A DNA stretch of 64,000 nt from Candidatus Babeliales bacterium. Lineage in GTDB: Bacteria; Babelota; Babeliae; Babelales; JACPOV01. Made by a program: the position numbers and the translations under genes. Shown in pieces: positions 1 through 64,000 of this stretch. The notes under the pieces were generated by a model, which did no database searches, was not told the origin of the DNA, and was given only the letters and a program-made list of their open reading frames with translations. Position 1 is the stretch's first letter. Each line of letters opens with the position of its first letter. The stretch is taken from contig JBAVOR010000016.1 of NCBI GenBank assembly GCA_049692255.1, positions 7,006 to 71,005 of the forward strand, read 5' to 3'.

Positions 1-1
1 G

Positions 2-1390
2 GTATATCGTGTTACCAGCCACACTAAGCATGTGGGTCCTGGTACAACGTTTGTAGCGGTTAAGGGCATGAAGCAAGATGGTATAGATTTTATTGGTGAA
101 GCGCTCAATCTGGGCGCTTCTTCCATTGTTATACAGGAAGCAGTGCAGTTGTCTGATGCAACGATGAGCGCTCTTGAGCGAGCAGGTGCACAGCTCGTGC
201 GTGTAACGGACACGCGTCTGGCGTTGGCACAATTGAGTGCACAGGCGTACGGTAACCCGGCACAGCAACTAACTATTATTGGAGTAACGGGTACAAAGGG
301 TAAATCGACCACCTGCTTTTTAATAGAACAGATATTACGCACTGCAGGTTATGCGACTGCGCTTATTAGCTCTGTACGTAACGCGATTGGTACTACCTAT
401 TTTGAAACCCATCTCACCACACCGCAACCCGACTTTATTCAAATGTTTTTGGCACAGTGCGTGCAAGCAGGAGTGACCCATGTGGTTATAGAAGTGGCAG
501 CGCAGGCACTCACGCTCCATCGCGTCCATGGCATTACTTTTGATAGCGTACTATTTACGAATTTTGATCAAGAGCATCTGGAATTTTATGCATCCATGGA
601 TGATTATTTTGTAGCAAAAGAACAGCTGATGTCACGCGTTAAAGCAGGTGGTATTGCCTGGGTTAACGGAGATGATACGCGCTGTGCAATGCTTAAAAAT
701 AACTATGCGCATGTGCGTACGTATGGCGTAACAGCGGGTGTTGATGTGCTCGTTCGCATGCAATCGCGTGATACGGGTGCGCAGGTACACGAAGGTGACG
801 CTTGTTGGCAATCGCCTGCATTGCTCGGGTTATTTAATGGGTATAATATGACGGCAGCGTTGTGTGTTGCCCGTTCGTTAGATATCCCTGATGCGGTTAT
901 ACACAATGCATTTCATACGTTCACCGGTGTGCCGGGAAGGGTCGAACGATATTCATTGCCCAATGGTGCTATTGCGTGCATAGACAAAGCGCATAATCCA
1001 TCATCGTTTCATGCTATCTTGAGCACGTTGCGTGGAATAACTTCTCATTTAATTGTTATCTTTGGTGCCGGCGGCGAACGCGATAAATCAAAACGGCCGC
1101 TCATGGGAGCCATTGCTGCATCGTTTGGCGATCTCGTATTTATTACCACTGATGACCCGCGCTCTGAAGATCCTGCAACTATTATACAAGAGATTTATGC
1201 AGGAATTGAACCGGCATTACAGGCACGAGTGGTATGTGAGGTTGACCGTGAGATTGCAATTCGCGCAGCGTATGCAGCATCAAAGCCAGGCACCATTATT
1301 GCGCTCTTGGGCAAAGGGGTAGATGAATATCAGTTGATCCAAGGCATTAAGCAACCGTTTAGCGAGCGTGCTATTTTAGCTTCGCTTTAG
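2..1390 (+). CDS. murE: UDP-N-acetylmuramoyl-L-alanyl-D-glutamate--2,6-diaminopimelate ligase (MurE), 5'-truncated at window edge
   Basis: Mur ligase P-loop 'GVTGTKGKSTT'. C-terminal 'DDPRSEDP' matches the MurE DNPR motif. The ORF is open to the window start. Confidence 0.8.
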   Translation, partial: VYRVTSHTKHVGPGTTFVAVKGMKQDGIDFIGEALNLGASSIVIQEAVQLSDATMSALERAGAQLVRVTDTRLALAQLSAQAYGNPAQQLTIIGVTGTKGKSTTCFLIEQILRTAGYATALISSVRNAIGTTYFETHLTTPQPDFIQMFLAQCVQAGVTHVVIEVAAQALTLHRVHGITFDSVLFTNFDQEHLEFYASMDDYFVAKEQLMSRVKAGGIAWVNGDDTRCAMLKNNYAHVRTYGVTAGVDVLVRMQSRDTGAQVHEGDACWQSPALLGLFNGYNMTAALCVARSLDIPDAVIHNAFHTFTGVPGRVERYSLPNGAIACIDKAHNPSSFHAILSTLRGITSHLIVIFGAGGERDKSKRPLMGAIAASFGDLVFITTDDPRSEDPATIIQEIYAGIEPALQARVVCEVDREIAIRAAYAASKPGTIIALLGKGVDEYQLIQGIKQPFSERAILASL

Positions 1391-2994
1391 TTAACCTGCT
1401 TATACGATTTTTTATACACTGCGGCACTCGCTTCAGGGTCATACTCCTCACTCCAATCTGATTTATATGAAACATATATTTTTTTGTTTAGTATCTCGAG
1501 TTTCCAATCTTTTTCAAAGATAGTGCCAACAGTCAATCGTGCATACGTATCAAAGTCGAAGGGGTCTAGGCTGTGGCCGTATGGTGTATCGGGGCATACG
1601 TTGAGCGTGACAACCATGCCATTCCACGGTTTCTCTGTACCAACAGCAGGCGTACTTTTGTGACGCCATAATTGTACAGTGCCCGGGGTTAGCTGTGTGT
1701 CTGTCATGAGATCCATCATTGCATTATCACCATGTTGATGGGCACGGAATATGCCTACAACTGTATAGCTACCTGGCAGAGAGAAGCGCCATGCGGAAGT
1801 GCTCAAAGCGCCAAAAGTCCACCCTCTATTCTCGACATAGGCAATTGACTTGGCAGGATCAACTATAAAATCATTCCACATGAAACCCATTTCACGGGGT
1901 GATAATGGTTTTTTATTAGTAAACAGTGCATCCGAACTAACCTGCTGAGAATCTGTATATTGTTGCTTTAGTTGTACTATGGCATCTGGATCGTGAGAGA
2001 TTGCTTTGAGCATCTTTTCCCAGCCTTTTCCCTGCTCTAATGTTTCAATCAGTTCAAATCCAATTAAATCTGTTTTTAATGAGAAAAGTTGTGCAGGGTT
2101 ATACCCGATTTCGATGCCACCATGGCAGCACTGAATAAATTCATTTGGGTTTTTCTGTGACCCTACAAATAACACAGCAGGTAATAATTCGTACCAATTG
2201 CATATGTGACTAAAAAGATCAGGAGCAAGTTCGCCGAATTTCTCTTTTACTTCTTGCATGAATCCATAATGAATATTGATATACAAATCTTCATGGTTAC
2301 CACGCACCAAGACACATTGTGTAGGGTTGGCAGCTTTTAAGCGCAGGATAGAATACAGTACTTCAGCGCCATATAAACCGCGGTCAGTATAGTCACCTAA
2401 AAAGAGAATATAATGGTCAGGCTTAATAATAGTAAAATCTGATCTGATAATCCCTTGCTGCAATAACTCTTTTAAAAAATAACGCACAGACCGCATATCG
2501 CCATGCAGATCGCCATGCATGAGTAATGTAGTTTGCGGTGGCAATACCAGCTTTTGCGTATATGGTTGAAATGGGCGGTTAGGGTTTTGTAGATATGGCT
2601 TATCAAGTGATTTTGTGCCTACCCACTGCTTTTTGTCGAGTAAATAGGTGCTCATTGTTTTTTCACAGGCATCAATCCCGTTCATTAACTCTTGCGCAGT
2701 AAAATCTTTTGCTGTTAGAGTCCCTTCTTGTGACTTATGCCAAGAAGGCAACTCGTCGCATGCATCAATCCATTGCTCAACTGTTTTATAATGAAATTGC
2801 CCAGTTTTTTGCGGTGTTGTTATTGGCGGTGCCGTTTTTTTCGGTGGTGCAATAAATGCATTCTGCAAAGCAGCGAGCGCTTTTTGATAGCCCGTTAATG
2901 CTGCTTCCAACGGGTAACAGTGCTGCGTGTATAGCAGCGCAACAAGCATAAGAGATCTGCTCGTTATTGATACTTTATTTTTCATTCGATTCAC
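1387..2994 (-). CDS. PPP-family (calcineurin-like) Ser/Thr protein phosphatase with N-terminal signal peptide
   Basis: Canonical PPP motifs in order: GDLHGD, GDYTDRG, GNHE. Hydrophobic N-terminus 'SLMLVALLY'. 535 aa. Confidence 0.7.
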   Translation of the reverse strand: MNRMKNKVSITSRSLMLVALLYTQHCYPLEAALTGYQKALAALQNAFIAPPKKTAPPITTPQKTGQFHYKTVEQWIDACDELPSWHKSQEGTLTAKDFTAQELMNGIDACEKTMSTYLLDKKQWVGTKSLDKPYLQNPNRPFQPYTQKLVLPPQTTLLMHGDLHGDMRSVRYFLKELLQQGIIRSDFTIIKPDHYILFLGDYTDRGLYGAEVLYSILRLKAANPTQCVLVRGNHEDLYINIHYGFMQEVKEKFGELAPDLFSHICNWYELLPAVLFVGSQKNPNEFIQCCHGGIEIGYNPAQLFSLKTDLIGFELIETLEQGKGWEKMLKAISHDPDAIVQLKQQYTDSQQVSSDALFTNKKPLSPREMGFMWNDFIVDPAKSIAYVENRGWTFGALSTSAWRFSLPGSYTVVGIFRAHQHGDNAMMDLMTDTQLTPGTVQLWRHKSTPAVGTEKPWNGMVVTLNVCPDTPYGHSLDPFDFDTYARLTVGTIFEKDWKLEILNKKIYVSYKSDWSEEYDPEASAAVYKKSYKQVN

Positions 2995-3121
2995 TTTCTT
3001 TATCTTTTTTTAAAAAGAGTGATCTAGAGGGCATATCTTTACAAAAAACCTATTTTTAATACAGTAATATAATTATACGGCCCCTGAGCGGGTCAAGTAC
3101 AGAGTTTAAGGAGTTTTTATT

Positions 3122-62862: not shown

Positions 62863-63021
62863 ATAATTTAATCCTGTTGTGCTGCGGGTACTATTATCAT
62901 TGAATATATCTATTTCTATGCAAGTTTAAAATGGTGGCTGCGTTTGAGCAACAGAACAGGCATGGTTAAGAACAGTGAGTGCAATAACTATTTTTAGAAC
63001 ATTCATATATCTCCTTTTTTT

Positions 63022-63960
63022 CTATTGAGATAGTGCAGTAGTCAACTGTGTATATGCCTGTTGTAGCTTTTGTAATGCATCGATTAATTGATTCGCTTGA
63101 TCTGGTTTTTCCGGTTCTGGGTTTTGTTGCACTTGTTTTAACGCATCTATTTTGTTTTTTTGTGCTTGTACGACTGATTGCATAGATTGTATCTGTTCAA
63201 TAATTGTGGGCGGCACTTCCTGTTCGGGCATGGGCGTAGATTGTTTTAAGGTTTGTAACCATCGTGCAACAATGTTTGGGGCATCATATGGTTGAGATAA
63301 AGGTATGCCGGTGAGCAACGCTTCATACCATGCGTTGCCAGAGGTCATAAAAGTGCATCTGAAAAATGAGTTCATTTTGTGTATGGTTACCTGTTTGAGC
63401 GTGGTAGTTTGTGTACTTTGAGCAGTGAGCGGTGCGCATACTATTTTTTCAAAATAATAGCTGGTCGGTATTTTTGAAGGATTATTTATAATACTTTCTA
63501 ACAGAGAAGCCAATGAAACAGTGGGACTATGCAACTCTTTAACATACAGTATCCCTTCGTCTGGCATATTGGTCCATAGTATGGGCATGGTGTTTTGATT
63601 AATATGCAAAGAAATTGGTGCATAGATCCAATAGAGAGCATCAGATTTTTGCTGTGGATAGAAATCGAAAAAAAGATATTTCTTGTTGATAACGGTAGTG
63701 GGTCTGTTTTCTGCAAAAGCCCGCATTGCTTGTATGCGCGTGATGCGCTGAATATCATCATATTCTTTGTCCAGTTTGAACCATTGTGTGTGAGGAAAGC
63801 GAACAGCAGGTATCGATCGGATGATCTTGGTATTAATAAGAAAAGGGTTACTAATTAATTGTACAATTTCTCTCAGATTGCCATCCCCATTCACCATATA
63901 TCCTTGCAGGCGGGTAAAAAAAGGAGAAAATGCTGCTTTAATATCTAATTTAAGTACCAT
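63022..63960 (-). CDS. Hypothetical protein with Q-rich coiled-coil C-terminus (possibly 5'-partial)
   Basis: 312 aa ORF. In-frame sequence stays open to the window edge at 64000. No Shine-Dalgarno before the first Met. Confidence 0.4.
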   Translation of the reverse strand: MVLKLDIKAAFSPFFTRLQGYMVNGDGNLREIVQLISNPFLINTKIIRSIPAVRFPHTQWFKLDKEYDDIQRITRIQAMRAFAENRPTTVINKKYLFFDFYPQQKSDALYWIYAPISLHINQNTMPILWTNMPDEGILYVKELHSPTVSLASLLESIINNPSKIPTSYYFEKIVCAPLTAQSTQTTTLKQVTIHKMNSFFRCTFMTSGNAWYEALLTGIPLSQPYDAPNIVARWLQTLKQSTPMPEQEVPPTIIEQIQSMQSVVQAQKNKIDALKQVQQNPEPEKPDQANQLIDALQKLQQAYTQLTTALSQ

Positions 63961-64000
63961 TGAACTCAGAAAAAAAGTGCTTGAAATAACGGTATAGTTC

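Follow-up and report, generated by a model that had tools for sequence, protein, structure and literature searches.

Secreted and eukaryote-like genes within a conserved chromosomal backbone of an uncultured Candidatus Babeliales bacterium

Does the accumulation of secreted and eukaryote-like genes in this 64-kb stretch of DNA (hereafter the window) mark a local island, or does it reflect the genome as a whole? We consider it very likely that the window represents an unremarkable part of the chromosome of an uncultured Candidatus Babeliales bacterium, which combines a conserved backbone with lineage-specific secreted genes, that secreted and eukaryote-like genes are dense across the genome rather than concentrated in a local island, and that the proteins are exported via Sec, a subset of them reaching the host via a type II secretion system (T2SS) or outer-membrane vesicles.

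The DnaG protein encoded in the window is 100% identical to the NCBI entry 'MAG: DNA primase [Candidatus Babeliales bacterium]', and its other named homologues, only 43-50% identical, all belong to Babeliales or Dependentiae. The nearest relatives of MnmG are unclassified and TM6 MAGs (56-60% identity), and the locus tags WCE21_02950 and WCE21_02275 of a Babeliales MAG are found on two further window or paralogous proteins. The original prediction of a Legionellales-like or Dependentiae-like symbiont therefore holds for its Dependentiae part and fails for Legionellales. Every cultured representative of the phylum parasitizes protists from inside their cells, and this way of life has been inferred as the ancestral state (PMC4776705, PMC6561590, PMC4378268, PMC12172432). 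The predicted intracellular or amoeba-associated lifestyle is thus supported by taxonomy and gene content, which together suggest a protist-associated organism, a reading that is already textbook for the phylum Dependentiae/TM6. Because genes for a secretion system, an ATP/ADP translocase or rRNA are absent from the 64-kb window, both the lifestyle and the export route are extrapolated from relatives.

The backbone genes (murE, nrdAB, CNNM, rpoD, dnaG, lgt, mnmG, mraY and umuDC) are interleaved with lineage-specific ones, and the order AA-permease, mraY, mnmG, lgt, dnaG, rpoD, CNNM is common to the window and the relatives L002 and L003. The murE gene (UDP-MurNAc-tripeptide ligase; 1-1390, + strand; Mur_ligase_M, Mur_ligase_C and N-terminal domains) is cut at its 5' end by the window start; on the overlapping Logan contig L006 it is complete (469 aa), with a Na/Ala symporter upstream and the PPP gene downstream on the other strand. 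It is separated by ~30 kb from mraY (31499-32560, +; Glycos_transf_4, E=1.2e-29), and each gene is solitary and lies outside any dcw cluster, as had been claimed; this fragmentation is ancestral to the lineage. Further peptidoglycan genes that have been kept encode a periplasmic M15 D-Ala-D-Ala dipeptidase with a signal peptide (10319-11092, +; Peptidase_M15, E=3.7e-37) and a GH3/NagZ-like protein (61162-62862, -; Glyco_hydro_3), the latter carrying a signal peptide or anchor, as do the FMN reductase (59336-60049, -; FMN_red) and the SPFH protein (60088-60879, -; Band_7). The low-complexity N-terminal extension ascribed to rpoD (22007-24013, -; Sigma70 r1_2, r2, r3 and r4) is likewise present: the 668-aa protein features a Ser/Lys-rich stretch of ~50 aa and an acidic insert, whereas the extension is missing in L002, the closest GTDB relative, whose orthologue has 614 aa.

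Hand curation identified signal-peptide-like or anchor-like N-termini in ~26 of the ~50 window genes, 17 of them without a significant Pfam domain, where the original count was at least 18 signal-peptide hypothetical proteins. Signal peptides were called by a home-made hydrophobicity heuristic, not SignalP, and under a stricter uniform version the fraction is 31% in the window versus 16-18% in control loci. Some of the calls may be membrane anchors (e.g., SPFH and FMN reductase), and since Sec alone delivers to the periplasm, it is probable that many of the 26 function in the envelope and not as effectors. The respective genes are scattered along the entire 64 kb among core genes, and Shine-Dalgarno-like motifs are found upstream of annotated starts. 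A share of about half is as expected for Babeliales; in Chromulinavorax destructans, 44% of the CDS carry signal peptides (PMC6561590).

The clearest eukaryote-like candidate is a USP/C19 ubiquitin-specific protease (15359-16672, -), matched by the Pfam UCH model with E=4.6e-38 (131.7 bits; model cutoff 23.9). Its Cys, His and Asp catalytic residues are invariant in the alignment, and we regard the deubiquitinase assignment as genuine, the activity being predicted. Its best solved relatives in the PDB are all eukaryotic USPs, with USP15 and USP8 on top (E ~1e-16); identity to eukaryotic USPs is only ~25%. In the window protein and its relatives P0002-P0004, the Cys box comes immediately after the signal peptide. 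Translation likely starts at Met17, giving 421 aa, and a 421-aa form is already on record.

Several bacterial USP-type enzymes invite comparison. Burkholderia TssM is a USP-fold deubiquitinase that is exported by Sec and T2SS rather than by T3SS, T4SS or T6SS, but it lacks the Fingers subdomain and carries an Ig-like domain (PMC10719079). In contrast, the window USP aligns with USP15 over the full catalytic domain including the Fingers region, where it is devoid of zinc-binding cysteines, and has no Ig-like domain; TssM is absent from its top 60 PDB hits. SnUSP1-3 of Simkania negevensis, an amoeba-associated intracellular bacterium, are USP-type deubiquitinases with conserved catalytic residues whose activity has been verified experimentally (PMC10643670). 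They come from the T3SS-bearing phylum Chlamydiae, are large and contain hydrophobic regions, and the homologue search detected no close sequence relation to the window USP. Among its few bacterial homologues is the USP-family protein P0008 of Candidatus Amoebophilus/Amoebophilaceae (23% identity), a distant sequence from Bacteroidota in which a long low-complexity linker precedes the catalytic domain.

Other members of the proposed eukaryote-like set fared unevenly. The PPP-family Ser/Thr phosphatase-like protein (1387-2994, -; Metallophos, E=2.6e-15) has a signal-peptide-like N-terminus and readable GDLHGD, GDYTDRG, RGNHE and HGG motifs, and its best PDB matches are the eukaryotic BSU1, PP1, PP2A, calcineurin (PP2B) and PP5. 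The secreted PDI-like protein (5312-6322, -; two Thioredoxin stretches, E=8.7e-27) comprises a signal peptide and two thioredoxin domains (CGHC and CGMC) joined by a Pro/Ala-rich linker, and is best matched in the PDB by TXNDC5, PDIA3, yeast PDI and PDIA4. Both names can be retained, with activities that are predicted. The membrane H+-translocating pyrophosphatase (3122-5095, +; H_PPase, E=2.1e-231, 770 bits) is present as claimed, but it is no evidence of eukaryote-likeness because H+-PPase, like ATP/ADP translocases, occurs in every TM6 genome examined (PMC4776705). For the ankyrin candidate (52692-53210, +), which has a signal peptide, four Ank-clan models (Ank_4, Ank_2, Ank_5 and Ank; E=0.003-0.07) all score under their cutoffs; the protein is an ORFan whose sole homologue found is itself (WCE21_02950), and its single-sequence structure model (pLDDT 33) is unusable, leaving the assignment marginal. 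Thus, two of the six items fall short, the ankyrin protein as marginal and the F-box-like protein outright, and the H+-PPase is not diagnostic.

The F-box identity of the protein at 55372-56937 (-) was rejected, as no test that was run gave F-box support. It belongs instead to a two-domain effector-like family of 76 representatives and has a paralogue in the same MAG. The family is common to Babeliales, where its members carry a signal peptide, and to other bacteria, where they do not; the latter forms lie on non-Dependentiae contigs, including those of a different, respiring bacterium.

The lineage-specific genes form several groups. Beside the USP lie a PLD-like protein whose signal peptide is weak (12766-14304, -; two PLDc_2 stretches, E=4.5e-14) and a secreted putative alpha/beta-hydrolase or lipase (14419-15312, -) with a signal peptide, an HSHGG motif and weak Pfam matches to PGAP1, Hydrolase_4 and Tle3 (E 0.002-0.01), followed by three signal-peptide proteins lacking a significant Pfam match (16822-18207, -; 18314-19297, +; 19416-20078, -). 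The 16822-20078 part is missing beside the CNNM gene of L002, and the USP, PLD and lipase block (12.7-20.6 kb) is missing at the syntenic places in both L002 and L003. Between lgt and mnmG, which adjoin in these two relatives, the window contains four small signal-peptide ORFans (26712-27110, +; 27128-27478, +; 27471-28109, -; 28141-28635, -), all without Pfam matches and each also a gene call of the Logan assembly. Another open reading frame (35522-47278, +; 3918 aa, signal peptide from Met26) encodes a giant secreted repeat protein with three super-repeats of ~700 aa, mutually 68-75% identical, and tail-fibre-like repeats; it has no Pfam match and a single PDB match, a phage capsid decoration protein (E=1.6e-10), and the Logan assembly breaks within the gene. 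Further signal-peptide candidates are hypothetical proteins with a signal-peptide N-terminus (30606-31184, -) or a small signal-peptide or lipoprotein-like one (LLISC; 50461-50982, -), a weakly matched HAD-like hydrolase with a signal-peptide-like N-terminus (51878-52618, -; Hydrolase E=2e-4, below cutoff), and an additional 141-aa signal-peptide ORF (54889-55314, +) that overlaps the over-extended umuD ORF and appears on Logan contig L008 as a gene of 138 aa.

How might such proteins leave the cell? Those with Sec signal peptides would cross the inner membrane by Sec and be cut by signal peptidase I. Judging from the literature on cultured relatives, a subset may then reach the host by the T2SS or in outer-membrane vesicles; it would comprise many ORFans along with the USP deubiquitinase, the PPP phosphatase and the proteins resembling PLD and lipases, the putative effector types USP, PPP, PLD and PDI-like being assigned by Pfam and PDB matches. 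Their possible roles within the host are deubiquitination, dephosphorylation of host proteins or remodelling of host lipids. No Dot/Icm, T4SS or T3SS locus is expected, because the T2SS is the sole secretion system of Babela (PMC4378268) and every TM6 genome examined has T2SS and type-IV-pilus parts (PMC4776705). The T2SS route is consistent with the classical Sec signal peptides of the window, and TssM provides a precedent for a T2SS-exported USP-type deubiquitinase (PMC10719079).

That the window is instead an effector or pathogenicity island gained by horizontal transfer, dense in such genes only locally, appears unlikely. The gaps at the syntenic sites of L002 and L003 (12.7-20.6 and 26.7-28.6 kb) and the ORFan-dense region at 52-59 kb would suit an island, but the signal-peptide genes span the whole window mixed with core genes, GC is uniform (0.38-0.46), and the window lacks integrase, tRNA and mobile-element genes; moreover, the share of signal-peptide CDS in cultured relatives is a genome-wide one (PMC6561590). 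Eukaryotic contamination or a chimeric MAG assembly, suggested by the fact that the USP, PPP and PDI-like proteins all find their best solved relatives among eukaryotes, is scarcely credible: run SRR28002569, assembled independently in Logan, shows the same gene order over several contigs, and the eukaryote-like genes are intron-less, sit amid bacterial core genes with bacterial signal peptides and Shine-Dalgarno-like motifs, and in the case of the USP are far diverged from eukaryotic homologues.

The repertoire of USP, PLD, PPP and ANK-like proteins resembles Legionella effector types, and would thereby favor a Legionellales-like symbiont that delivers its effectors via a Dot/Icm T4SS or a T3SS. 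We nevertheless hold this to be very improbable, since DnaG places the organism in Babeliales, the candidates bear predicted cleavable Sec signal peptides that T4SS and T3SS substrates normally lack, Babela manages with a T2SS only (PMC4378268), and the signal-peptide-less homologues of the 55372-56937 protein belong to another bacterium. Somewhat less remote, yet still improbable, is the idea that the bacterium lives freely, has a large set of periplasmic or secreted proteins and gained a few eukaryote-type domains by chance. Peptidoglycan synthesis and recycling genes, RNR, an SOS polymerase and transporters are all encoded in the window, and nothing in it proves host dependence; however, Babeliales are described as strictly intracellular, a USP with a signal peptide would find its substrate only inside a eukaryotic cell, and the 55372-56937 effector family also occurs on other effector-rich bacterial contigs.

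The preferred reading, a Babeliales chromosome with genome-wide secreted content, is in line with the described relatives. Babela massiliensis, of the same order, has three secreted C19 ubiquitin hydrolases, many eukaryote-like signal-peptide proteins, ORFan islands, a T2SS only and a degraded division and cell-wall gene set (PMC4378268), but it lacks murein synthesis genes, whereas the window organism keeps murE, mraY, the M15 dipeptidase and GH3, and it has 126 ankyrin proteins against one marginal candidate here. C. destructans is similarly rich in signal peptides, its signal-peptide CDS are enriched in ORFans, and export via Sec, possibly with outer-membrane vesicles, has been proposed for it; in contrast to the window, ankyrin proteins make up >10% of its genes, and USP, PPP and PLD effectors were not highlighted (PMC6561590).

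Reading the predicted cleavage sites (slash), we further noted a previously unreported feature: in putative Babeliales effectors, a Met directly follows the signal-peptidase site. Such junctions are seen in the PLD-like protein (...SYS/MESQ), the ankyrin candidate (...SYG/MDKE), the former F-box candidate (...AFA/MEQ) and three signal-peptide ORFans without Pfam matches (57264-57920, -; 58089-58715, +; 58734-59327, +), the last two being tandem paralogues (24% identity, E=1e-7). The M15 dipeptidase has a signal peptide and no such junction. The junction Met of the putative effectors aligns with the initiator Met of signal-peptide-less homologues from other bacteria.

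Sequence comparisons assign the window to Candidatus Babeliales within the phylum Dependentiae (TM6). Its DnaG is 100% identical to the NCBI entry 'MAG: DNA primase [Candidatus Babeliales bacterium]', and all remaining named DnaG homologues come from Babeliales or Dependentiae (43-50% identity). MnmG shares about 58-60% identity with proteins from TM6 and unclassified MAGs, and the locus tags WCE21_02950 and WCE21_02275 link two more proteins to the same MAG. The permease, mraY, mnmG, lgt, dnaG, rpoD and CNNM genes follow a gene order common to the window and two relatives, L002 and L003. 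The intracellular, Dependentiae-like lifestyle originally proposed is supported by this taxonomy, as Dependentiae are described as obligate intracellular parasites of protists that possess ATP/ADP translocases (PMC4776705, PMC6561590, PMC12172432). A scan of GTDB species genomes with MnmG returned four loci, one of them labelled Saccharimonadales. This locus, L003 (DATIJN010000149.1, GTDB label 'Candidatus Saccharimonadales'), has the same gene order as the window and 38-58% protein identity to it; given this synteny, the label probably reflects a misclassification or a mis-binned Dependentiae contig. The window gene order was also recovered on four contigs of Logan, an independent assembly of run SRR28002569, which rules out a chimera.

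The window contains approximately 50 genes at a GC content of 38-46%; searches of the window for tRNAs and Rfam families returned none. Pfam identifies a housekeeping backbone of murE, H+-PPase, nrdA/nrdB, an ABC transporter, a CNNM/CorC transporter, rpoD, dnaG, lgt, mnmG, mraY, an amino-acid permease, ogt, a DEAD-box helicase, umuD/umuC, an FMN reductase, an SPFH protein and a GH3 hydrolase. Two repair functions are kept in this lineage of reduced genomes, namely the umuD/umuC SOS-type translesion polymerase pair (53185-55022(-)) and an O6-methylguanine methyltransferase (47181-47816(+)). Start calls on record differ from the longest ORFs in places, as for the 437-aa ORF of the deubiquitinase described below and a 312-aa ORF at 63022-63960. 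The longest umuD ORF (54462-55022(-), 186 aa) is likewise over-extended, the Logan gene call being 112 aa, and the space freed by the shorter form holds a separate signal-peptide ORF of 138-141 aa on the opposite strand (54889-55314(+)).

Among the eukaryote-like genes, the USP deubiquitinase (15359-16672(-)) is a call that database searches bear out: PF00443 matches with E=4.6e-38 and 131.7 bits against a threshold of 23.9, and the match spans positions 3-254 of the 254-position profile. By sequence, the protein is a member of the USP (peptidase C19) family and is predicted to cleave ubiquitin conjugates. Its closest solved structures are all of eukaryotic USPs, USP15 and USP8 among them. The catalytic residues C38, H332 and D348 (numbered in the 421-aa form that starts at Met17 of the ORF) align to those of USP15 and are invariant in 12 aligned homologues, and both the N-x-G-N-T-C Cys box and the G-H-Y His box are present. 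The three closest relatives are metagenomic (31-35% identity) and have the same layout, in which a signal peptide is followed almost at once by the Cys box and the protein ends in a short helix; a scan of the GTDB species representatives found no relatives at the sensitivity used. The bacterial USPs characterised so far are limited to Burkholderia TssM and three enzymes from Simkania, and the protein described here provides a clean case of a compact USP-type deubiquitinase with the catalytic Cys box right behind the signal peptide.

The PPP phosphatase could be confirmed as well. All four elements of the PPP signature (GDxHG, GDxVDRG, GNHE and HGG) are present, appearing in order in the translation as GDLHGD, GDYTDRG, RGNHE and CHGG; Metallophos matches at E=2.6e-15, and the top PDB matches are eukaryotic PPP enzymes. 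For the PDI-like protein, what holds is an exported tandem thioredoxin: a signal peptide, two Thioredoxin stretches recognised by Pfam, active sites CGHC and CGMC, and top PDB matches in the PDI family. A low-complexity linker of ~90 aa, rich in Pro, Ala and Gln, connects the two Trx domains, the b/b' domains are absent, and a reading of the translation found no KDEL-like C-terminus as an ER-retention signal. Its sequence thus indicates PDI-like chemistry rather than a canonical PDI. The H+-PPase, in turn, is a genuine gene (H_PPase, 770 bits), but its use as a mark of eukaryote-likeness does not stand, since the enzyme is reported in all TM6 genomes (PMC4776705) and therefore says nothing on this point.

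The two remaining candidates yielded weaker matches. The ankyrin candidate (52692-53210(+)) matches four Ank-clan models at E 0.003-0.07, each under its cutoff, and carries two G-x-TP[LI] motifs with a spacing of 52 aa rather than 33. A homologue search returned only the protein itself, and its AF2 single-sequence model is unusable (pLDDT 33). The F-box identity of the ORF at 55372-56937(-) had to be abandoned: the F-box-like profile scores below threshold (E=0.19, 11.9 bits against 24.3) on the N-terminal 'LPPEIIGHI...' segment, none of the 52 scanned members of its family matches an F-box model, and the family profile has no PDB match at E<=1. Structure comparison likewise did not recognise the three-helix Skp1-binding fold in this protein.

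An exhaustive phmmer search instead places the F-box candidate in a two-domain family of 76 members (cluster representatives P0133-P0208) that has neither a Pfam model nor a solved structural relative. A MYND zinc finger of the eukaryotic type was recognised in three of the scanned members. At least two paralogues are encoded in this MAG, and two lie on one 464-kb contig elsewhere; a metagenome scan with the narrower family alignment A4 gave only three loci, the alignments A2 and A3 being too divergent. Members lacking a signal peptide occur in other bacteria (contigs L013 and L014). Two of these are on bacterial contigs with stop codons upstream of the gene, and the L014 member has a Shine-Dalgarno motif ahead of its start. 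One contig bearing such a member also encodes cytochrome oxidase genes and hence does not derive from a Dependentiae genome. This effector-like family is common, with and without signal peptide, to Babeliales and another intracellular-type bacterium.

Signal peptides are frequent throughout the window. The original count of at least 18 hypothetical proteins with signal peptides was close: by inspection, backed by a hydrophobicity heuristic and counting signal peptides and N-terminal anchors alike, approximately 26 of the 50 genes qualify, 17 of them without a significant domain. Under a stricter uniform heuristic, the share is 31% in this MAG versus 18% and 16% in control loci. The proposed concentration of such genes holds insofar as they are many; they do not form an island. 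Signal-peptide genes are interspersed with core genes across the whole window, and their overall fraction agrees with the genome-wide 44% of Chromulinavorax destructans (PMC6561590), which makes the concentration a property of the phylum. A 12.7-20.7 kb block comprising the PLD, lipase and USP genes and four hypothetical proteins is missing at the syntenic site in relatives, and four small signal-peptide ORFans (26712-28635) separate lgt from mnmG, which are adjacent in the closest relatives, L002 and L003. Two secreted proteins of ~200 aa, encoded in tandem at 58089-58715(+) and 58734-59327(+), are highly diverged paralogues (24% identity).

Regarding export, the original prediction envisaged a dedicated secretion system elsewhere in the genome, with Dot/Icm, T4SS or T3SS loci as the ones to search for. 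None of these is the machinery we would expect. Babela massiliensis is reported to encode a RING protein, an F-box protein and three C19 ubiquitin hydrolases that are secreted; the sole secretion system found in it is of type II (PMC4378268), and components of the T2SS and of type IV pili belong to the TM6 core genes (PMC4776705). Together with the Sec-type signal peptides on the candidates, this argues against Dot/Icm T4SS or T3SS effector systems; the classical signal peptides found here fit a Sec/T2SS route. Burkholderia TssM exemplifies that a USP-type deubiquitinase can be a T2SS substrate (PMC10719079). ATP/ADP translocase and T2SS genes were absent from the 64-kb window and the extra 6 kb recovered. 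The domain identities and signal-peptide-like N-termini are direct observations; from there, the proteins would be cleaved by signal peptidase, released by the T2SS or in vesicles, and would act on host ubiquitin, phosphoproteins and lipids. Overall, the original observation was mostly correct and re-derived known biology of a known lineage, from a MAG already deposited: it is established that Dependentiae live as parasites, export a very large set of proteins through Sec and possess ubiquitin-system enzymes of eukaryotic type. Its main value is the correct call from raw sequence.

Only one element may be new. Seven proteins of the window feature an A-x-A-type cleavage site that is followed at once by a methionine: the F-box candidate (...AFA/MEQ), the ankyrin candidate (...SYG/MDK), the PLD-like protein at 12766-14304(-) (...SYS/MES), hyp218 (...TRA/MNH), hyp208 (...MHA/MNQ), hyp197 (...ISA/MEQ) and hyp212 (...TSA/MLK). 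The four hyp proteins among these seven are encoded at 27471-28109(-), 57264-57920(-), 58089-58715(+) and 58734-59327(+), and the junction is also found in L010 and L012, two Babeliales-like metagenome loci. Only two of the seven proteins are paralogous to each other, and the residue after the junction Met is mostly Asp, Glu, Asn or Gln. While these are putative effectors, the junction is missing from the periplasmic enzymes with housekeeping roles, namely M15, GH3, the tandem thioredoxin and PPP. By the uniform heuristic, it is present in 7 of 19 signal-peptide-like ORFs of this MAG (binomial p=7e-5) and in 10/15 from the Babeliales-like loci L010-L012, where it spans several unrelated families. 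Control loci show it in 1/16 ORFs overall (1/9 for Dependentiae housekeeping loci, 0/7 for non-Dependentiae loci). In the F-box candidate's own family, it occurs in 21 of the 31 representatives that bear a signal peptide, 20 of them with Asp, Glu, Asn or Gln next, against a chance expectation of about 1.4%. The Dependentiae literature searched contained no mention of this feature.

Analysing the same family, we further noted that the position of the junction Met corresponds to that of the start Met in homologues without signal peptide from a respiring bacterium outside Dependentiae, the median distance to the conserved core being 27.5 residues for the former and 31 for the latter. The simplest reading is that the gene acquired a signal peptide ahead of a start codon that stayed intact, a step made easy by AT-rich DNA, in which the upstream sequence can readily code for Lys and then Phe, Leu or Ile. 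Translation initiating a second time, internally, at the junction Met finds no support in any Shine-Dalgarno-like motif. NatB-type acetylation might be invoked for the preference for Met-Asp/Glu/Asn/Gln; it is weakened by the fact that acidic residues are common behind signal-peptidase sites anyway and that NatB acts co-translationally. A rather unlikely generalization would be that putative effectors of Babeliales become exportable when a Sec signal peptide is fused directly to the original start Met of a complete, often horizontally shared gene, so that the mature protein starts with Met, usually Met-Asp/Glu/Asn/Gln.

The junction Met may be kept under selection rather than as a relic, possibly because an N-terminal Met is stabilising in the Arg/N-degron pathway of the host. 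In that case, it would provide a sequence signature by which effectors delivered to the host could be told apart from periplasmic housekeeping proteins in the phylum. Were the junction both general and functional, it would offer a simple rule to pick host-targeted proteins from Dependentiae proteomes, as well as a model for how a lineage with only Sec and T2SS recruits foreign genes as effectors.

Two further traits concern core genes. The dcw cluster is indeed fragmented: murE and mraY are each solitary, and murE, murF, mraY and murD are not contiguous. The neighbours of murE are the PPP gene and a Na/Ala symporter, those of mraY a hypothetical gene and the amino-acid permease, a context that mraY also has in L002 and L003. 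As the order from mraY to CNNM is kept in these two relatives, the fragmentation is an ancestral trait of the lineage rather than something peculiar to the window. The N-terminal extension of RpoD is likewise real, its first ~50 residues being Ser/Lys-rich, but it is not diagnostic of lifestyle; the protein has 668 aa versus 614 aa for the L002 orthologue, which is devoid of this stretch.

Finally, the window contains a giant ORF (35522-47278(+)) encoding a Thr/Ala/Gly/Ser/Asn-rich protein of 3918 aa with a signal peptide and no Pfam match. Self-BLAST of the protein split into segments detected three super-repeats of ~700 aa with a mutual identity of 68-75% (residues about 280-980, 960-1670 and 2180-2900), each starting with a beta-helix-like 'RTIYVxxxGSDSNxGS' motif. 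The Logan short-read assembly breaks inside this ORF. Its repeats are tail-fibre-like, and one segment resembles a phage capsid decoration protein (PDB 9nx3, E=1.6e-10); judging from these features, the product is probably a surface fibre or adhesin.
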